From a virus (lineage: Duplodnaviria; Caudoviricetes): a stretch of DNA of 25,040 nt. The DNA lies in IMG/VR virus record IMGVR_UViG_3300042465_004193, positions 1 through 25,040 of that record. One strand, 5' to 3'. The position numbers and the translations under genes were made by a program. This document shows positions 5,131 through 20,207 of this stretch, piece after piece; within the stretch, counting starts at the first letter, position 1; each line of letters starts with the position of its first letter. Below the pieces are notes generated by a model. That model made no database searches and had not been told where the DNA came from. It saw nothing but the letters and a program-made list of their open reading frames with translations.

Positions 5131-6060
5131 ATGAAAACAACACAAAAACAAATCGGCATTGAGTACACGTTAACGGGTGACAGCACCCGCGGTGAAATTA
5201 CGGGCTACCATCGTAAACCTGAGGCGCTAAAATTAAATAAGACGCCTTATAGAGTGGATATATCAGGTTTAAAAACTGCGGGCGTACGTCAAGCTATAAA
5301 AATTGACGGCGCGGTTTACGAGTCTAAATTTACGATAGGTATGGAGGTGGAAAAAAATAATTTGCATCGAGGCGCGGTGCGCGAATATGAATTGTTTTGC
5401 GGGTTTGAGCGCGACGGGTCGTGTGGGTATGAGGCGGTGACACATATACTGCCTTTGATACCTGAAAGCAAATGGCGTACAAAAATTTACGATATGATGC
5501 ACAAAGCGGAGAAAATCATCGATGACCGCTACAGCCCGTCAAGCAGTAATTGTGGTGGTCACATTACATTGGCGGTGGACGGAATGATGGGTGAGCAATT
5601 AAATTTTGAGGTGCGAAAATATTCGGGCATTGTGCTTGCAATGTTTAGAAATAGACTAAAAAACGTGTACTGCGGTGCCAATCGTCGAATGCAAGCAGGG
5701 TATATGAGCGAGTATAACAGCGCGCCCGCGGGACGTGGTACGTACGACCATAACGGGTGGCACTATAAATACCAAACAGCATTAGTTAAGGGTAATTTGC
5801 TCGAATTTAGATTGCCGAGCCGTTTCGAGTCGGTAAAGCAAATGATGCGTAGGTACGAATTAATGTATGAATTGGTAAACTTTGCGGTGAACGTGCAAGG
5901 GACGCAAAAAGCATTCTTTGCGAAAATACGCCCTATTATCCTATCAATGTATAACGGAGAAACGGAGAAAACCGACGAAATATTTAAATTGGCGGTGGAC
6001 TTTCAAAAATTTATTAACACGGGGGTGATTAGTGATGCAATAGCGCAGTACCTTAGGTAA
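5131..6060 (+). CDS. putative amidoligase (COOH-NH2 ligase, glutamine synthetase-like fold)
   Basis: motifs IGMEVE, ERDGS, GYEAVT, NCGGHI, HYKY, LEFRLP match the amidoligase-2 family pattern. Confidence 0.8.
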   Translation: MKTTQKQIGIEYTLTGDSTRGEITGYHRKPEALKLNKTPYRVDISGLKTAGVRQAIKIDGAVYESKFTIGMEVEKNNLHRGAVREYELFCGFERDGSCGYEAVTHILPLIPESKWRTKIYDMMHKAEKIIDDRYSPSSSNCGGHITLAVDGMMGEQLNFEVRKYSGIVLAMFRNRLKNVYCGANRRMQAGYMSEYNSAPAGRGTYDHNGWHYKYQTALVKGNLLEFRLPSRFESVKQMMRRYELMYELVNFAVNVQGTQKAFFAKIRPIILSMYNGETEKTDEIFKLAVDFQKFINTGVISDAIAQYLR

Positions 6061-6087
6061 GCGCTACGGGGGCGCTCAGGCGCTCCC

Positions 6088-6138
6088 GCTGTAGTGGAAT
6101 GAGTGTTCCACCTGATGAGTCTAAAAAGACGAAACGGC
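6088..6138 (+). ncRNA. type III hammerhead ribozyme (HH1)
   Basis: stem III GCUGU/ACGGC; cleavage triplet GUA (6091-6093); stem I GUGGAA/UUCCAC; core CUGAUGA (6112-6118); stem II GUC-UAAAAA-GAC; GAAA. Confidence 0.9.
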
Positions 6139-6161
6139 AAACCTTTAAACCAATAAACAAG

Positions 6162-6383
6162 ATGGACTTAACAAAATTTACAAAGGAAAAAATTACTGAC
6201 GAAAATTTAATAAACGCAATTACTTTTCAGGGTATTGACATTTGGGAAAGCGCCGACGGGAACCAATGGGTTACAGATTGGAACGGCAATTTAATATTGT
6301 GCAAAAACGAAGATTTGTGGTTAGGTGATGAGTGGGGAAGCACTGAAACGGAGATGTTTATTTTAAAACCTTTAAACCAATAA
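6162..6383 (+). CDS. hypothetical acidic early protein (MDLTKFTKE...)
   Basis: ATG at 6162 after an A-rich leader; the longer 6099 start runs through the ribozyme. Confidence 0.7.
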   Translation: MDLTKFTKEKITDENLINAITFQGIDIWESADGNQWVTDWNGNLILCKNEDLWLGDEWGSTETEMFILKPLNQ

Positions 6384-6386
6384 ACT

Positions 6387-6551
6387 ATGAAAAAACTAAA
6401 GATGGCTAAGTTGTGGGCAGTGGACTGCTTTTGCTTAGGTAAGTACGTGCAGATGTACACGTTCAAAAAGTGTTCAGATGCAGTAAAGATGGCGCTAACG
6501 ATTGACGGGGCTAAGGTAGAGCGTAGAGAGTGTTTAACGGACAAGTATTAA
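6387..6551 (+). CDS. small hypothetical protein (54 aa, MKKLKMAKLWAVDCFC...)
   Basis: fills the gap between neighbours; preceded by the same 20-bp leader as 6162. Confidence 0.6.
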   Translation: MKKLKMAKLWAVDCFCLGKYVQMYTFKKCSDAVKMALTIDGAKVERRECLTDKY

Positions 6552-6556
6552 AGCAT

Positions 6557-6781
6557 ATGGACAAGTTCAGAGTGTGCGGGATAACCTCAGAGGGATACCC
6601 GCAAGTAGAGGTGAGCGATTTATCGTACGATGAGGCGGTAAAGGAGATGAATAGGCGAAAGAGTTTCTTTCCTGATGTGGATTTCTATATTGATGTGGCT
6701 CCTGATGAGGCACCAATGCGCAGAATAAATACAAGGGAGGTGGCTGATGGTTGGGAGGATTTCTTTCCTGATTCACACTGA
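6557..6781 (+). CDS. hypothetical early protein (MDKFRVCG...)
   Basis: ATG at 6557 within ORF 6530..6781. Confidence 0.65.
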   Translation: MDKFRVCGITSEGYPQVEVSDLSYDEAVKEMNRRKSFFPDVDFYIDVAPDEAPMRRINTREVADGWEDFFPDSH

Positions 6782-6797
6782 GTGTCTTTAAAGACAC
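6782..6797. repeat. 16-bp palindrome copy 3 GTGTCTTTAAAGACAC
   Basis: perfect palindrome abutting a stop codon. Confidence 0.95.
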
Positions 6798-6798
6798 G

Positions 6799-6840
6799 GC
6801 TATGTATGGTATAAACAAGGGTTCGAGTCTCTTGCATAGC
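6799..6840 (+). ncRNA. tRNA-like minihelix (acceptor-like stem plus T arm, no anticodon arm)
   Basis: GCUAUG/CAUAGC stacked on CAAGGG/CUCUUG closing a 7-nt UUCGAGU loop; linker UAUGGUAUAAA contains a D-loop-like UGGUA. Confidence 0.65.
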
Positions 6841-6879
6841 GCGAGCAATATTGCTTAATTAAACCAAATAACAAACAAG

Positions 6880-7185
6880 ATGAACAAAAAAATGTATGTT
6901 GTAAAGTACAACGATGCCCACGGAAATGGGGACAATCAAAATTTAGAAGTTATAGTTGAAAATCGTAATCAATTTTTAAGTTGGTTGGATGAACATAACG
7001 AGAGTAGAGATGCCGAGCCTGAGACAGAAGATGAGTTCGAGCTTATACCTTTAAATGTATATTCCTCAGGGAGTATAACTATTCCTATTTATTATTACGA
7101 GGACGACGACAACGAAAAGGTTTACGACGTCGAGGAAATGACCAAAGAATTTGAGACGGCAATTTATCAATTAGAAAGAAAGTAA
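6880..7185 (+). CDS. acidic hypothetical early protein
   Basis: 101-aa ORF with an A-rich leader. Confidence 0.75.
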   Translation: MNKKMYVVKYNDAHGNGDNQNLEVIVENRNQFLSWLDEHNESRDAEPETEDEFELIPLNVYSSGSITIPIYYYEDDDNEKVYDVEEMTKEFETAIYQLERK

Positions 7186-7186
7186 G

Positions 7187-7375
7187 ATGAAAAAAAGAAC
7201 AATTTTATTAGCCTTAGGTGGCGTGATTTATTCGGGTGTGATAGTCTACCTGATGAGTATTTTAAACAGCCTCAATCCATTTGAGTGGGTGGTGCTGATG
7301 TGTACAATGTTTTTATCCTTAGGCGCAGTAGCGTACGGGTGTAATAGATTAGATAACAATTTAAACAACAAGTAA
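7187..7375 (+). CDS. small two-TM membrane protein
   Basis: 62 aa with two hydrophobic stretches. Confidence 0.7.
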   Translation: MKKRTILLALGGVIYSGVIVYLMSILNSLNPFEWVVLMCTMFLSLGAVAYGCNRLDNNLNNK

Positions 7376-7376
7376 G

Positions 7377-7523
7377 ATGGAGATTTACATCGAGTACCTA
7401 AACAAAGACAACGGCTACAAGGTAGCACGTAAAGACTTTGGTTCGTTCGAGAGCGCTCGCAGTTGGGGACAGCAGAACATTGACAATTTTATTTTGGATA
7501 TGATTAAAATTAAAGTATTATGA
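7377..7523 (+). CDS. small hypothetical protein (48 aa, MEIYIEYLNKDNGYK...)
   Basis: fills the gap; ATGA overlap with the next gene. Confidence 0.65.
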   Translation: MEIYIEYLNKDNGYKVARKDFGSFESARSWGQQNIDNFILDMIKIKVL

Positions 7524-7753
7524 GAGATTTAGATTTATTAATCAGACAAGCAATAGCAAAATCTGATAAAGACCAATATGGTCAGTGTGTTACAAGACAT
7601 ACAACAATTTATGGTTTATTCAGGAATGAAGGTGATGAGTTTCGAGCAGAAATAGAGGCACATTTAAAAAGCGGGAATAGTAAATATGTATTACAATGCT
7701 ACGGAGGAAGTCTCGGTGTGTTCTATGCAATTAATCCTTGTCCTAAAAAATAA
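7520..7753 (+). CDS. hypothetical protein
   Basis: 77-aa ORF in operon. Confidence 0.7.
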   Translation: MRDLDLLIRQAIAKSDKDQYGQCVTRHTTIYGLFRNEGDEFRAEIEAHLKSGNSKYVLQCYGGSLGVFYAINPCPKK

Positions 7754-7782
7754 TTAATTAAACAATTTAAACAAATAAAAAA

Positions 7783-8145
7783 ATGGGTAGATATTATAGA
7801 GGCGACATCGAGGGCAAGTTTTGGTTCGGGTTGCAAACAAGTGATTGCGCAAGTAGATTTGGTGGTCAGGCAAATGAACCACAATACATCGAGTATAAAT
7901 TTGATGAGGACGATTTAGATGGTATTAAAAAAGAGATTGCAAAAATTCAGGAGTCACTGGGAGAAAACCTCAAGAGAATTAGTGACTATTTTAAAAACAA
8001 TAACGGCTATACTATGGAGGAATTTCAGGCTATGGGTATAACTGATGAGATGCTATCTGACTACGCTGACTTAGAGTTGGGTATTCAAATTAGAGATTGC
8101 GTGATAGCAGAGGGTAGTTGTAATTTTGATGCAGATTTAAACTAA
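7783..8145 (+). CDS. hypothetical phage protein (MGRYYRGDIEGKFWFG...)
   Basis: 120-aa ORF flanked by 27-bp direct repeats. Confidence 0.8.
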   Translation: MGRYYRGDIEGKFWFGLQTSDCASRFGGQANEPQYIEYKFDEDDLDGIKKEIAKIQESLGENLKRISDYFKNNNGYTMEEFQAMGITDEMLSDYADLELGIQIRDCVIAEGSCNFDADLN

Positions 8146-8167
8146 AACAATTTAAACAAATAAAAAA

Positions 8168-8368
8168 ATGGAGCAAAAAGTAGACGTGTACCAAGAGCGA
8201 CAAGAGTTGTTGCAAGAGGTGATTGATAGATTGATTTACCTACCGAAGTATCGTAGGAGTTCTTTCAAAGATAAGTTAGATATACTTATCAGAATGTACC
8301 CGATTGAGTTCAGGGAAGTTAACGGAGTGAGAGTGTTTGAAATAGTAAAGGAGACGTGTGATGAATAA
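8168..8368 (+). CDS. hypothetical protein
   Basis: 66-aa ORF with a repeated leader. Confidence 0.7.
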   Translation: MEQKVDVYQERQELLQEVIDRLIYLPKYRRSSFKDKLDILIRMYPIEFREVNGVRVFEIVKETCDE

Positions 8369-8558
8369 GAAAATTGTATGGAGCGTGGTCGAGGTGCCGA
8401 CGAATTACGCCAAAATATTCTACAAGAAAACAAACTTAGTAGTGGCGCAGTTCGATACCAAACAACAAGCTAACGAGTTTACGGAGGTCAACAATATTGA
8501 CGCGTACCACGATGAGATGATTGAGTGCTTCGCTATCAAACCAAGCTATAAAGATTAA
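8361..8558 (+). CDS. hypothetical protein
   Basis: overlaps the previous stop; ATG at 8361. Confidence 0.65.
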   Translation: MNKKIVWSVVEVPTNYAKIFYKKTNLVVAQFDTKQQANEFTEVNNIDAYHDEMIECFAIKPSYKD

Positions 8559-8569
8559 ATTAAATTAAA

Positions 8570-8601
8570 TTTGGATATGTGCAATATATGTGCTATCTTA
8601 G
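8570..8601 (+). promoter_or_regulatory. Bacteroidota-type promoter
   Basis: TTTG (8570-8573), 20-bp spacer, TATCTTAG (8594-8601). Confidence 0.6.
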
Positions 8602-8662
8602 TGTTTTATTAACAAACCGAGTTCTCCGCCTTGTTAGGTGGTGCTCATAAACCAAACAAACT

Positions 8663-9757
8663 ATGTGCGTAATTATCGTAAAGCAAAACAAAAACAAGAT
8701 GCCAATTGATGTGGCTAAAACGTCATCAAAAATTAATCCTCACGGATTGGGAGTGATATGGTTGGATACCTACGAGGTATCGCACCATACCTCTAAAGAG
8801 TACAAGATTCTCGACACCGACAGACCATTCATTGCGCATTTCAGATACGCTACAATTGGTGCAGTAGGTTTAGATAACACACACCCATTTAAGTGTGGTA
8901 AAAACAAAGCAGAGTGGCTAATGATGAACGGGACGATTCGTGGGTTGGGTGACACCAAGAAGTGTGACTCAAAAGTTCTTGCCGAGCAGATTGGCTCCAA
9001 GCCACGTCACACGTGGAGGGAAGTATTGGAGCAGTACGATAGCAGATTCGTAACTATCAACACACGTAACCGCACGTTTCAGATGTACAACAAAGATATG
9101 TGGCACAAGAAAGACGGCATATGGTACAGCAAAGATAACGTGTTGCAGGATAATTTAGTGGCTGTGTACGGCACGCTCAAGAAAGGCGAGAGTAATTACT
9201 ATTCATACCTTACCGACTCAAAGTTAGTCGGTAAGGGTGAGACCAAAGACAAGTACCCACTAATAATCAAGGGATTGCCTTACCTGATAGATGACATTGG
9301 AGTGGGACATAATGTAGAGGTGGACGTGTTCAAAGTTACTGATGCTACGCTTGCCCGATTAGATGCGTTGGAGGGACACCCACATTGGTACCAAAGAAAG
9401 TTGGTGCCTATCAAGACCGCTAAAGGTAACGAGTTGATGTGTTGGGTATACTTTAATATAGAAGAGAAAGTTAACGGGCAGAAGATGCACAAGACATTCA
9501 AGCGGGAGCCCGCACCATTAAAAAAGATTGAGAATAATTATTGGAGTTCTAAATTCCATAAGCCATACGAGTTGCAGTGGGACGAGAGGCAGAGTATAAT
9601 GCAAGACGAGGAGCAACAAGAGTACAATATAGATGAAGAGACACCAATGTGTGTAGAATGTTATAACGATTTGAAGTTCGATGGGTTCGCAAACTATCAT
9701 TGCGGGGGTTGTGGTAGTTGGTTCACGGAGACTGAAATCGTCAGGTTTAGACCATAA
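8663..9757 (+). CDS. class II glutamine amidotransferase / gamma-glutamylcyclotransferase (AIG2-like) fusion with a C-terminal Zn ribbon
   Basis: N-terminal Met-Cys, NPHGLG, AHFRYATIG, HPF, MNG (Ntn GATase); VAVYGTLKKG and LDALEG (GGCT); CVEC...CGGC. Confidence 0.88.
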   Translation: MCVIIVKQNKNKMPIDVAKTSSKINPHGLGVIWLDTYEVSHHTSKEYKILDTDRPFIAHFRYATIGAVGLDNTHPFKCGKNKAEWLMMNGTIRGLGDTKKCDSKVLAEQIGSKPRHTWREVLEQYDSRFVTINTRNRTFQMYNKDMWHKKDGIWYSKDNVLQDNLVAVYGTLKKGESNYYSYLTDSKLVGKGETKDKYPLIIKGLPYLIDDIGVGHNVEVDVFKVTDATLARLDALEGHPHWYQRKLVPIKTAKGNELMCWVYFNIEEKVNGQKMHKTFKREPAPLKKIENNYWSSKFHKPYELQWDERQSIMQDEEQQEYNIDEETPMCVECYNDLKFDGFANYHCGGCGSWFTETEIVRFRP

Positions 9758-9766
9758 AAAGCGGGA

Positions 9767-9782
9767 GTGTCTTTAAGGACAC
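9767..9782. repeat. 16-bp palindrome copy 4 GTGTCTTTAAGGACAC
   Basis: one mismatch; embedded in the longer hairpin CGGGAG...CTCTCCCG. Confidence 0.85.
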
Positions 9783-9784
9783 TC

Positions 9785-9838
9785 TCCCGTATCGAGATGA
9801 GTTGTCTCGACTGATGATTCCTAAAGGATGAAACGGGA
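9785..9838 (+). ncRNA. type III hammerhead ribozyme (HH2)
   Basis: stem III UCCCGU/ACGGGA; GUA (9789-9791); stem I UCGAGA/UCUCGA; CUGAUGA (9811-9817); stem II U-UCC-UAAA-GGA-U; GAAA. Confidence 0.85.
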
Positions 9839-9862
9839 TTTAAAAAACTAAAACAAAAACAA

Positions 9863-10093
9863 ATGACAAAAGAATTTAAGTTTAATATCGACGTAAAGTA
9901 CGTACGATATGAAAGAGAAGAGTTTTCAGTAAGTTGCAATACTGAGGAAGTAGCTATTCAGTTAGCGAAAGAGTACGTATCAGGTATGAAAAAAGAGTTC
10001 TCTGATGGGGAGTACGTTGAAGACATAACGATTAGCGACTCTAATGGAGACTACATTGAAGACGTAATGGCGGAAGGAGATATGATAGTATGA
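9863..10093 (+). CDS. acidic hypothetical protein
   Basis: 76-aa ORF with an A-rich leader. Confidence 0.7.
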   Translation: MTKEFKFNIDVKYVRYEREEFSVSCNTEEVAIQLAKEYVSGMKKEFSDGEYVEDITISDSNGDYIEDVMAEGDMIV

Positions 10094-11712: not shown

Positions 11713-11745
11713 TTGCACGAGTAATGCATATAATATGTATATTTG
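11713..11745 (+). promoter_or_regulatory. Bacteroidota-type promoter for the recombination/replication module
   Basis: TATATTTG at 11738-11745 with an upstream TTG at 11713. Confidence 0.65.
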
Positions 11746-11772: not shown

Positions 11773-12075
11773 ATGAAAAAAGATATATTTAATGAGTGTG
11801 TGGAGAAGGTAGTTCAGACATTTCGTATAGAGAGAAAACACCTATTTAAAAAATCAAAAGTTCAGGAGTATGTAGATGCAAGACATTTGTTATACTATCT
11901 ATGTTCAGTAAGACCAATGCCTTTGGCAACAATCAATAACTATATGAACCAAAATGGCTATGAGACAAGTTGGTCAACAATATATAGGGGCGTATCTTCA
12001 TTTGAAAACAAGATGAAACAAGATGCAGACTACAAAAGATTAGTAAGAGACATTCAAAATTCAATCACAATTTAA
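11773..12075 (+). CDS. DnaA domain IV-like HTH protein
   Basis: KSKVQEYVDARHLLYYLC...LATI...STIYRG parallels the DnaA C-terminal R...AR.IAMYL...DH.TV pattern. Confidence 0.7.
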   Translation: MKKDIFNECVEKVVQTFRIERKHLFKKSKVQEYVDARHLLYYLCSVRPMPLATINNYMNQNGYETSWSTIYRGVSSFENKMKQDADYKRLVRDIQNSITI

Positions 12076-13463: not shown

Positions 13464-13688
13464 ATGAAAAAGAAAGATACAGCAAGATTTATTATTGAAA
13501 AAATTGGTGGATTCCCTTTTAGCTTAGTTAGAAATAATAGGAGTAGACCATTAAAAGTTGCAGTATTGTTATTTAACTTTTTTTGGTTTGTAATAGTAAT
13601 GACTATATTTATACCCTACTTTTTTTATGCTATGACAATGGAAATAGTAAATGGAATTATAGATGATAATGATAGTCATAAAAAATAA
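13464..13688 (+). CDS. small membrane protein
   Basis: 74 aa with a long hydrophobic stretch. Confidence 0.65.
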   Translation: MKKKDTARFIIEKIGGFPFSLVRNNRSRPLKVAVLLFNFFWFVIVMTIFIPYFFYAMTMEIVNGIIDDNDSHKK

Positions 13689-13696
13689 TGCCCAAT

Positions 13697-13744
13697 CATC
13701 AGCTTAACCTTAGAGGTTGGTGGTCGGTTAAAACAGACTAAGGT
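13697..13744 (+). ncRNA. putative cis-regulatory pseudoknot in the SSB leader
   Basis: CAUCAGCUU/AGGUUGGUG stem; loop ACCUUAG complementary to CUAAGGU (13738-13744). Confidence 0.5.
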
Positions 13745-17843: not shown

Positions 17844-19261
17844 TGGACATACTCGAAAGAATACCATCATACTCAGATGAGATGATGTGGAAATATTGTG
17901 AGTCACTAAAAAATATTGTTCTCACAAAGAAACCAAATAAAGACGCATTAAAATACTATACACCAAAAGAAATAATTGATAGAGTTGTTTTGAGTTGTGA
18001 TTACTATAAAAATAATATGACAGGTTCAGATAAGTTTAAACTACGAGATTACCAAGAGAACATTATTCAGTGGGGCTCAGAGATTCTATCTGCAAAAGGA
18101 TTCGTGTATCTTACTATGGAGGTTAGAACGGGTAAGACGCTAACAAGTTTAGGTATAGCAAAGGCTATAGGTGCCGAGAATGTTTTATTTATCACAAAGA
18201 AGAAAGCAATTGACTCTATTGAACGTGATTACAATCTAATGAATGGTACGTTCAATTTAAAAGTAATTAATTACGAGAGCCTACACCTTGTAGCCAACGA
18301 ATGTAAGTGGGATTTAATCGTATGCGACGAAGCGCATTCAATGGGGGCTTTCCCAAAGCCAAGCAATCGTGCTTCGTTGGTGAAGTCGGTGATTCAAAAA
18401 TACAAAAGCAAAGTAATTTTATTGTCAGGCACACCAACACCTGAGTCATTCTCTCAGATGTATCATCAAGTGTATGGTATTCCTAATAACCCGTTCAGCG
18501 AGTTTGTAAACTTTTATAAGTTTTGCGCCAAGCACGTTAAGATAAAGCAGAAAAAAATTGGCAGTATGTTCATTAATGATTACAGCGAAGGCTTACCAAG
18601 CATTCTCGATGTGATGAGACCATACACCATAAACTACACGCAGGCTGACGCAGGATTTAAAGTTGTAACGACAGAGAATGTTTTACAAGTAGAGTTGAAG
18701 CAGTCTACGTATGAGCTGATTAAAAGACTTAAAAAAGATTTAGTGATAGAGGGTAAGGAGGAGTTGATATTAGCTGACACAGCAGTGAAGTTAATGAGCA
18801 AGCTACACCAATTATATTCAGGGACGGTAAAGTTTGAGAGTGGTAAATCTATGGTAATAGATAACACCAAGGCAGAGTTTATCAATTCACATTTCAAAGG
18901 CAAGAAGATTGGTATCTTCTATAAGTTTAAAGAGGAATTGAATGCGCTTAAGGATGCGTTTGGTGATGAGCTAACAACAGAGCTTAGTGTCTTTGAAGAC
19001 ACAGACAAAAGTATAGCACTACAAATTGTATCAGGCAGAGAAGGAATTTCTTTAAGGCAAGCATCGTGCCTTGTTTATTACAACATTGACTTTAGCGCAA
19101 CAAGCTACTGGCAGAGTAAAGACCGAATGACCACCAAAGAACGTCTTGAGAATGACGTGTATTGGGTCTTCGCCAAGGATGGTATTGAATATGACATCTA
19201 CAAAGCAGTAACAAAGAAAAAAGATTATACAGTTTCACATTTTAAAAAATTATTATTATGA
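17843..19261 (+). CDS. superfamily 2 helicase (phage SNF2/ResIII-like)
   Basis: LRDYQ, RTGKT, INYESL, CDEAH, LSGTP, GREGISL, QSKDR. Confidence 0.9.
   Translation: MDILERIPSYSDEMMWKYCESLKNIVLTKKPNKDALKYYTPKEIIDRVVLSCDYYKNNMTGSDKFKLRDYQENIIQWGSEILSAKGFVYLTMEVRTGKTLTSLGIAKAIGAENVLFITKKKAIDSIERDYNLMNGTFNLKVINYESLHLVANECKWDLIVCDEAHSMGAFPKPSNRASLVKSVIQKYKSKVILLSGTPTPESFSQMYHQVYGIPNNPFSEFVNFYKFCAKHVKIKQKKIGSMFINDYSEGLPSILDVMRPYTINYTQADAGFKVVTTENVLQVELKQSTYELIKRLKKDLVIEGKEELILADTAVKLMSKLHQLYSGTVKFESGKSMVIDNTKAEFINSHFKGKKIGIFYKFKEELNALKDAFGDELTTELSVFEDTDKSIALQIVSGREGISLRQASCLVYYNIDFSATSYWQSKDRMTTKERLENDVYWVFAKDGIEYDIYKAVTKKKDYTVSHFKKLLL
18987..19002. repeat. 16-bp palindrome copy 6 GTGTCTTTGAAGACAC, inside the helicase CDS
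   Basis: identical to copy 1. Confidence 0.9.
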
Positions 19262-19682: not shown

Positions 19683-20207
19683 ATGGAAAAGATTTTAGAT
19701 GTAAATGTAGATTTAGAGATAGTAACAAAAATTATTAGAGATAAATTTAATGTAGAAATTTTTGATAAGAAAAGAAATAAAGAAATTGTAGAGGGTAGAT
19801 TGATTTGCGCTAAGTTGCTTCATTCAGCAGGCTATACCTATGCCTCTATTGGTAAAGCAATGAAGAGAGACCACAGCTCAATTATATATTATGTAAAGAC
19901 TTTAGATAATTTAGTTATACAACCAAATGAGTTGAGGTATAAATACCACCAATGCAAGGATATATATTTTAAAGAGAGTAATGACTTATTAGATAAAATA
20001 AATAGAACACATTACGCAGACGAAGTCCTTTTGCTAAGAAAGCAGTTGCATAACTTATCAAACAACGTGCACAGATTGTCATCATTTTACGATAAGTACA
20101 AAAGACTTGAAGATATTGTATTGTTGGTAAACGAAAGAACTGAGTTTGGTAAAGAAGATGAAGTAAGAAAAAGAATAATGAGAATGTTCAATACTATAGA
20201 AAAATGA
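19683..20207 (+). CDS. DnaA domain IV-like HTH protein with a C-terminal coiled region
   Basis: KKRNKEIVEGR...YTYASIGKAMKRDHSSIIY. Confidence 0.8.
   Translation: MEKILDVNVDLEIVTKIIRDKFNVEIFDKKRNKEIVEGRLICAKLLHSAGYTYASIGKAMKRDHSSIIYYVKTLDNLVIQPNELRYKYHQCKDIYFKESNDLLDKINRTHYADEVLLLRKQLHNLSNNVHRLSSFYDKYKRLEDIVLLVNERTEFGKEDEVRKRIMRMFNTIEK

Follow-up and report, generated by a model that had tools for sequence, protein, structure and literature searches.

Why would a phage place a self-cleaving ribozyme just behind a stop codon, with a hairpin in between? The window (the whole 25,040-nt stretch of viral DNA analyzed here) holds two such hammerheads. The earlier note had read them as gated by an upstream arm that a terminating ribosome would mask. 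With moderate confidence, based on folding models and comparison with relatives, we favor another reading: a repeated intergenic cassette likely cuts early polycistronic phage RNA, and its hairpins would cap the 3′ ends and shield the ribozyme rather than gate it. The ribozymes and their neighboring genes and leaders are:

5131..6060, + strand: putative divergent amidoligase gene (glutamine-synthetase-like fold, from structure-model matches), 309 aa, upstream of HH1
6088..6138, + strand: HH1, type III hammerhead (RF00008, 39.4 bits, E 2e-5)
6139..6164, + strand: A-rich leader of the gene after HH1, with its likely true start at ATG 6162
8663..9757, + strand: class II glutamine amidotransferase-like/gamma-glutamyl cyclotransferase fusion gene (Pfam), 364 aa, upstream of HH2
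9785..9838, + strand: HH2, type III hammerhead with U10.1-U11.1 (RF00008, 34.4 bits, E 5e-4)
9839..9865, + strand: A-rich leader of the gene after HH2, which starts at ATG 9863

The search with the Rfam hammerhead model that the earlier note proposed recovered both motifs over their full length, with an intact core and type III topology, at the positions where it had placed complete hammerheads. Both score below the RF00008 gathering score of 48.5 bits, which is a curation threshold and not a structural feature and is also missed by eight of the nine relatives scored. Each contains the CUGANGA and GAAA core elements and an NUH cleavage triplet; stem III is open, and stems I and II are closed by loops. 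The triplet is GUA, as had been stated, and it ends at 6093 and 9791, with the predicted cuts 3′ of A6093 and A9791. The loop sequences had also been read correctly, and they are specific to this phage group. HH1 has the G10.1-C11.1 pair. The mismatch U10.1-U11.1 at positions 9818/9829 of HH2 had been overlooked; it is common to 45 of 195 family members, is described in the available text of PMC3088659 as a natural variant at the start of stem II, and is replaced by G10.1-C11.1 at the same site in L208. A relative from run X1 (share of words 0.06) carries two compensatory pairs in stem I of HH1 (6095/6110, 6099/6106) and turns the stem III wobble at 6136 into a Watson-Crick pair. The RF00008 matches and these compensatory changes confirm, at the sequence level, that both hammerheads are real. 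The 12.6-kb contig of a relative in the same run spans both cleavage sites; it is uninformative on cleavage, since contigs do not preserve RNA ends and the library possibly contains DNA. Our first hammerhead detector found HH1, missed HH2, and gave 0.05 hits per shuffled window (20 shuffles). With a detector that misses U-U variants, relatives presented up to four hammerheads per locus; this window has two, on the same strand. Neither the window nor 60 kb from three relatives yielded any further class of ribozyme.

The 309-aa and 364-aa ORFs end with the stop codons at 6060 and 9757, in agreement with the earlier note. The ORF at 5131-6060 had no Pfam, PHROG, or PDB sequence match, and none of relevance appeared among 39 homologues. 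The best Foldseek matches of its predicted model were glutamine synthetases (best E 9e-5, TM about 0.3), and an atlas cluster at score 0.97 has Amidoligase_2 on 12% of its members. The ORF at 8663-9757 matched Pfam GGACT (E 1e-22) and GATase_4 (E 2e-4, under its cut-off). The ATG at 6099, within HH1, is probably not a real ORF start. Leaders in the family are A-rich, and G is absent from -15 to -6 (74 leaders). The phage host is likely a member of Bacteroidota, and a search for a cultured close relative of the phage found none.

The same layout recurs among 170 unique hammerheads, from loci found through protein homology and grouped into 95 sequence clusters for folding tests. Its order is stop codon, 4-10 nt spacer, hairpin, hammerhead, A-rich leader, and ATG. 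A hairpin lies at most 3 nt from stem III in 158 of the 170, with no gap in 144, and hairpin sequences differ widely. In these 158, the abutting hairpin is strong and can coexist with the active fold. The earlier note was right that the 5′ arms lie close to the stop codon: the distance is non-random and corresponds roughly to one ribosome edge. The hairpin begins 4-10 nt past the stop in 122 of 157 cassettes vs. 4 of 108 terminator-like hairpins from the same loci (a set from which relatives were not thinned out), and the median spacing is the same across four gene classes. With this spacer, the proposed inhibitory sequence falls inside the footprint of a terminating ribosome. We also considered P1, the hairpin abutting each ribozyme, as an intrinsic terminator and rejected it, as both P1 hairpins run into stem III and not into a U-run.

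Under the favored reading, the hammerheads would cleave polycistronic RNA between genes. The upstream piece would be protected by the hairpin, which, as had been proposed, would stay attached at the freshly cut 3′ end, followed by 5-8 nt of tail (95/95 clusters). The downstream piece would gain a 5′-OH leader of about 68 nt. The spacer length would hold the hairpin just outside the terminating ribosome, and the hairpin would keep upstream sequence away from the ribozyme. In some cassettes, including HH1, the spacer is predicted to fold back onto the last codons (P0); it would then be tied up in the absence of a ribosome and covered in its presence. A ribosome may also aid cleavage non-specifically by covering upstream sequence. 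The elements at the two junctions are:

6041..6066, + strand: P0, stop-spanning hairpin made of coding 6041-6046 with spacer arm 6061-6066 and, inside it, stem 6049-6052/6056-6059
6062..6067, + strand: competing arm of HH1 proposed in the earlier note; alternative partner 6091-6096
6068..6087, + strand: P1 hairpin of HH1, ending at the first base of stem III (-15.7 kcal/mol, gap 0)
9737..9744, + strand: coding stretch complementary to the HH2 catalytic core at 9811-9818; predicted off-state in untranslated RNA
9762..9789, + strand: P1 hairpin of HH2; ribozyme-compatible register 9764-9785, slipped register 9762-9767 with the stem III 5′ strand

The competing pairings survived in part. Both form when short 5′ fragments are folded alone (6061-6100 of HH1, -23.4 kcal/mol; 9758-9795 of HH2, -16.7 kcal/mol). 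However, the 6-bp pairing of HH1 costs three stem I pairs and is absent from the lowest-energy fold when the whole ribozyme is included, and the HH2 hairpin, with a 16-bp palindrome (9767-9782) as its core, has the register 9764-9785 that leaves stem III undisturbed. P1 of HH1 is compatible with the active hammerhead fold. P0 is present in the lowest-energy fold of all seven close relatives of HH1, with two-sided changes in L127, L128/L208, and L129/L209. The covariation expected for the competing hairpin was found instead between the HH1 arm and the upstream coding end. In untranslated RNA, this pairing would sequester the arm and keep the ribozyme active. The predicted active fraction of HH1 varies from 0.01 to 0.62 across 0-120 nt of upstream sequence. 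For HH2, the lowest-energy folds of the window and three close loci contain an 8-bp helix between coding end and core, and the folding model predicts HH2 to be off in naked RNA. A search for more close relatives of HH2 returned only three, all already in the set.

At the family level, native 14-nt arms cost 1.81 kcal/mol, compared to 1.94 for shuffled and 1.80 for swapped arms (95 clusters), and the predicted active fraction is no lower with the hairpin included (median 0.40 without and 0.51 with it, 95 clusters). Both results count for cutting and capping. The effect of the 5′ start counts against it: the median predicted active fraction is 0.51 from the hairpin, 0.09 from the stop, and 0.03 with 30 nt of coding sequence, and removing the 9 nt after the stop brings it back to 0.43. 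Since the fraction drops with natural upstream sequence, the equilibrium model, which ignores tertiary contacts and folding order, does not predict most cassettes to be on without a ribosome. Pairing between spacer and coding end counts in favor: -2.46 vs. -1.45 shuffled (p 0.003) and -1.37 swapped (p 0.027; n=84), with 13-19 of 84 cassettes in the top 5%, whereas 218 hammerhead-free genes showed no such excess. Counting against it, P0 is clear in just 15-23% of cassettes and strongest in related GATase junctions. For 27 of these, RNAalifold returned no consensus structure. A hand-drawn structure of the GATase junctions gave 66.8% vs. 62.4% paired and covariation of 0.170 vs. 0.116 (0/500 shuffles), having been drawn from the same sequences; pairs changed on both sides showed no excess (256/500 shuffles).

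How probable is it, then, that a 5′ arm evolved to occlude the cleavage site or stem III as long as no terminating ribosome lies over the arm? We consider it very unlikely, even if both short-fragment pairings would arise during transcription before the stem III 3′ strand, and the HH1 arm-to-site pairing is retained in six of seven close relatives. Changes there are one-sided only, and the exception, L127, also has a stem III mismatch and may be a weakened ribozyme. The HH2 8-nt arm is equalled by only 3% of its shuffles, but by 17-22% of swapped arms; that of HH1 is equalled by 7-40% of shuffled or swapped arms. Across the 95 clusters, arm inhibition exceeded the shuffle in 40 (p 0.92), and direct arm-to-site pairing showed no excess at 8, 12, or 16 nt. 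We thus rejected the competing arm as a selected family feature, and the gate proposed in the earlier note found no support as a conserved feature. Moreover, the upstream partner of the HH1 arm is stronger than its cleavage-site partner in six of seven relatives and covaries on both sides. If the coding part is blocked but the arm is not, the off fold of HH1 has an advantage of only 0.5 kcal/mol over the on fold, and that of HH2 has none. A three-state switch of opposite sign at HH1 seems even less probable. Here, P0 would mean on, a ribosome on the last codons would free the arm and turn the ribozyme off, and termination would cover the arm again. In six of seven close relatives both partners are open to the arm, and blocking the coding part alone makes the lowest-energy fold inactive in the same proportion (6/7). 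However, the margin is 0.5-1.6 kcal/mol where the ribozyme is otherwise intact, the off state would be brief, and dual pairing is no family feature. Overall, the comparison of relatives gives no support to a dedicated ribosome-operated off-switch as the design common to the family.

Translation could still matter with no dedicated arm, if upstream sequence misfolds the ribozyme and the terminating ribosome masks it. We consider this unlikely, though less so than either switch above, and HH2 would be the strongest case. Its coding/core duplex (-11.9 kcal/mol) exceeds all 83 of 83 foreign gene ends, although such pairing has no family-wide excess (4/84 in the top 5%). The stop-to-hairpin spacing agrees with masking, as do the entry-tunnel edge, which the available text of PMC7518266 places 9 nt away from the stop codon's first base, and the active fraction that masking restores in the models. 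On the other hand, genome compaction down to a minimum distance imposed by the ribosome accounts for the spacing equally well, native gene ends are slightly less inhibitory than foreign ones (2.22 vs. 2.40 kcal/mol; 58/84, p 0.014), and the limits of the folding model and of the unthinned terminator set apply. The ribosome-edge spacing and the predicted off-state of HH2 together leave room for ribosome-assisted cleavage. We regard as similarly tentative a natural ribosome-sensing switch, in which the ribosome-length spacer, with P0 (HH1) or the core helix (HH2), would let the ribosome time hammerhead folding. It is also most improbable that the hairpin is mainly the by-product of a DNA-level palindrome, likely a protein-binding site, in a mobile cassette, with incidental RNA pairing. 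The 16-bp palindrome does occur 7-14 times per genome vs. about 0.03 expected, is found in both orientations, inside ORFs (23/55 copies), and at some terminator tips, and is carried by 117 of 170 hammerheads. However, HH1 and dozens of others have a hairpin lacking it, and the stem extensions flanking it use G-U pairs, mainly ahead of hammerheads and terminator U-runs. A literature search for the palindrome sequence gave no match.

Clustered phage hammerheads are already published (Perreault 2011, PMC3088659). In the available text of that paper, phage hammerheads arranged in tandem show cleavage both in vitro and in E. coli, which counts for cutting and capping, and several intergenic hammerheads per phage transcript, as here, are proposed to divide it into mRNAs the length of an operon or gene. 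Absent from that text are the hairpin against stem III, a set distance to the stop, the stop-spanning hairpin, and the palindrome. As far as the available text goes, RTS (Chemla 2020, PMC7518266) is a stable hairpin just beyond the stop-codon ribosome footprint, proposed to insulate against re-initiation. The cassette hairpin has the same position, but RTS is a genome-wide folding trend with no ribozyme, and the phage hairpin is fused to a cutter. The glmS ribozyme (review PMC6765202) likewise self-cleaves inside bacterial mRNA and could set expression, but requires a metabolite cofactor; no ligand or conserved switch is evident for the hammerheads analyzed here. The same review leaves the role of the many phage hammerheads as an open question. 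Our literature search, mostly without subscription papers, found nothing on hammerheads with amidoligase or glutamine amidotransferase genes and, among the papers listed, none on a ribosome-gated natural hammerhead. Work attributed to Liang and colleagues in 2015 reportedly places REP hairpins near stop codons in E. coli, as repeated palindromes at most 15 nt from the stop. REPs share a repeated palindromic hairpin near the stop with the cassette, but are a host repeat with no ribozyme.

The family thus offers a stereotyped layout that can be tested and brings its own natural controls: stem III joined directly to a hairpin, a ribosome-edge spacer, and sometimes a covarying stop-spanning hairpin. 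If cleavage depends on translation, it would be a natural ribosome-gated ribozyme; if not, an example of a phage making mRNA ends without terminators.

Finally, the window holds a third cassette:

6782..6841, + strand: 16-bp palindrome and, behind it, a tRNA-like minihelix (acceptor-like stem and T arm), with compensatory changes in L001, L003, and L004

ARAGORN found no tRNA there, and the fold alone is no better than shuffles (z -0.42). The palindrome-plus-minihelix arrangement has 25 distinct sequences among the loci compared. In hammerhead-less phages, inspection by eye placed a tRNA-like element in the same slot at about 10 of 72 amidoligase junctions and 6 of 73 GATase junctions, which counts for cutting and capping; a tRNA-like cutter able to replace the ribozyme would be a further natural control in the family.

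Both hammerheads of the window were recovered at full length by the Rfam search proposed in the earlier note, as type III motifs at 6086-6140 (E 2e-5) and 9784-9839 (E 5e-4), each under the gathering score. Inspection of the sequence confirmed the cleavage triplets, loops and stop codons described there for HH1 (after the 309-aa amidoligase-like gene) and HH2 (after the GATase-like/GGCT fusion). For a relative on a contig from sequencing run X1, eight differences from HH1 were listed within 6020-6215. Compensatory changes at two stem I base pairs account for four of them, and another converts a stem III wobble to a Watson-Crick pair. At the sequence level, these compensatory stem changes indicate that the hammerhead fold is under selection.

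A U-U mismatch opens stem II of HH2 and of 45 of the 195 family members. Perreault 2011 (PMC3088659) describes this start of stem II as a natural variant in its section 8 and proposes polycistronic RNA processing by clustered phage hammerheads; the window has two hammerheads, and HH2 carries the variant. A review (PMC6765202) considers the purpose of phage hammerheads unresolved. Family-wide, the U10.1-U11.1 variant occurs with a GUA triplet in 37/38 cases, is most frequent after the GATase gene (23/38), and may tune the cleavage rate.

We gathered loci by protein homology and by sequence pattern, and the detector gave 494 matches, corresponding to 195 unique hammerheads. For 170 of them, the locus came from the protein-homology search, which involved no selection for a hairpin. 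When these were folded with the ribozyme constrained active, 158/170 had a hairpin (-6 kcal/mol or stronger) no more than 3 nt from stem III, and in 144/170 it lay directly against stem III (gap 0). Hairpin sequences diverged widely, and the predicted cut preceded the next ATG by a median of 68 nt. We give very little credence to an incidental hairpin. At three amidoligase stops (L254, L258, and L266), the hairpin adjoining stem III begins 18 nt before the gene end, and its loop contains the stop codon. The window has further intergenic hairpins without a ribozyme at 8609-8642 and 13688-13727, the latter with a related copy on the run X1 contig.

Taken as a whole, a cut-and-cap reading (transcript cut, hairpin cap, 5'-OH leader, ribosome-limited spacer) is the one we lean towards. 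Cuts in the early transcript would likely fall after A6093 and A9791. RNA upstream of a cut would retain P1, the hairpin directly 5' of stem III, with a 5-8 nt tail as its 3' cap, and a structured 5'-OH leader would open the downstream piece. The spacer would have the minimum length that a terminating ribosome permits and, in some cassettes, would fold back as P0, a hairpin across the stop codon.

Elements and genes of the window
4199, 5096, 6782, 9767, 13438, 18987: six copies of a 16-bp palindrome
6782-6841: palindrome plus tRNA-like minihelix (6799-6841: acceptor-like stem and T arm)
Gene content: GroEL, Sak annealing protein, exonuclease VIII-like protein, primase, helicase

A hammerhead follows the stop in 52/72 amidoligase and 37/73 GATase genes; at the remaining stops, a tRNA-like element fills the slot in about 10 and about 6, respectively (counted by eye, with a few stops mis-located). 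The palindrome-plus-minihelix occurs in 25 distinct examples, and the minihelix at 6799-6841 shows compensatory changes in relatives. Host RNase P or Z may cut it. Because two unrelated cutters exchange, the selected property seems to be cutting, not a ribozyme-specific switch.

The palindrome is the core of the HH2 hairpin and is missing from the HH1 hairpin. Five related records carry 7-14 copies each vs. about 0.03 expected; 23/55 copies lie within ORFs, both orientations occur, and some copies sit at terminator tips. A separate site at the DNA level, riding on available hairpins and putatively bound by a protein, is the likely explanation. Two proteins (11773-12075 and 19683-20207) have DnaA C-terminal-like helix-turn-helix matches, one under the Pfam cut-off, and are candidate binders. 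The copy at 18987 lies within the helicase gene, and all five related records have an ORF copy with a similar flanking peptide.

The earlier note proposed that a competing 5' arm blocks each hammerhead until a terminating ribosome covers it. Both competing pairings do form in short folded fragments, but across the family they show no excess over control arms. For this test, 147 hammerheads with a hairpin 0-30 nt past the stop (23 others were dropped) were reduced to 95 clusters by an 80% identity cut-off. The native 14 nt before the hairpin cost the active fold 1.81 kcal/mol in the ensemble, compared with 1.94 for shuffled arms and 1.80 for arms of other cassettes; native exceeded shuffled in 40/95 clusters. 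Arm-to-site pairing tested directly at 8, 12, and 16 nt gave no excess over controls either. The window arms were above average, not extreme, with 7-40% (HH1) and 3-22% (HH2) of controls equally strong. The HH1 cleavage-site pairing is kept in 6/7 loci with one-sided changes only and is absent in L127. An evolved anti-ribozyme arm fails as a family design; a dedicated arm is highly improbable, and a switch of opposite sign slightly more so.

Non-specific help from the ribosome is a different matter, unlikely in our judgement, with HH2 as its leading case. In an equilibrium model, any upstream sequence lowers the predicted active fold, which counts against the cut-and-cap reading: the median active fraction was 0.51 when folding began at the hairpin, 0.09 when it began at the stop and 0.03 once 30 coding bases were added. 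Removing the 9 nt after the stop brought the modelled fraction to 0.43, as ribosome help would predict. Hairpin position also favors it: the hairpin starts 4-10 nt after the stop in 122/157 cassettes vs. 4/108 terminator-like hairpins from the same loci (full unthinned sets, different hairpin finders), and the median distances of the four gene classes all fall at 6.5-8 nt. To stay clear of the entry tunnel, Chemla 2020 (PMC7518266) begins its analysed region at 9 nt, counted from the stop's first base, and the family hairpins begin there. P0 has been lost in HH2, where the lowest-energy fold, in the window as in three close loci, joins the catalytic core to the end of the coding sequence in an 8-bp duplex that is stronger than with any of 83 foreign gene ends. 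Against this, such pairing reached the top 5% in 4/84 cassettes, the chance level; further relatives for HH2 were sought and none found.

Once the last codons are folded in, the HH1 arm reaches back over the stop codon to pair with 6041-6046. P0, P1, and the active hammerhead form the lowest-energy fold in the window and 5/6 close relatives; the sixth, L127, has P0 and a mismatched stem III. P0 is conserved in 7/7, with substitutions on both strands, some amino-acid-changing. In the 84 clusters whose spacer measures 3-13 nt, pairing between spacer and coding sequence exceeded that of shuffled (p 0.003) and swapped (p 0.027) sequences, p-values that are indicative because several tests were run. 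On rerun, 13 and 17 of 84 fell in the top 5% (8 and 10 of 63 with the GATase class removed), and 218 control genes showed no excess. Among GATase junctions in register (27/40), two pair-count measures supported P0 at 0/500 shuffles and one at 4/500, two gave no support, and RNAalifold found no consensus structure. Together, these results place a real P0 in a minority of cassettes. Our literature search returned no match for a stop-spanning covarying hairpin or for the spacing contrast with terminators. The HH1 counterpart at 8933-9010 of L127, the closest relative, combines a stem III A-G mismatch with a GUC triplet, retains P0 and P1, and may be weakened.

The window is the entire 25-kb virus record and includes a phage-encoded GroEL chaperonin (532-2148). 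The GATase-like/GGCT fusion is a 364-aa gene. The 309-aa gene had no match in a family search; its structural model matched glutamine synthetases as well as an atlas cluster in which 12% of members carry Amidoligase_2. We take 8570-8601 (before the GATase gene) and 11713-11745 (before the replication genes) to be promoter-like sites of Bacteroidota-type consensus; hence, HH2 may sit on its own transcript. The host is likely a member of Bacteroidota, since relatives' bins were Flavobacteriaceae, Cytophagales, and Flavobacteriales (3/3 loci) and family leaders are A-rich without a Shine-Dalgarno-like G-run, as PMC6847099 describes for this phylum. Finally, over 6546-8171, blocks of small genes (6546-6777, 6868-7187, and 7514-8171) are missing from the run X1 relative, possibly by modular gene loss, and the end of one joint lies 5 bases short of the palindrome at 6782.
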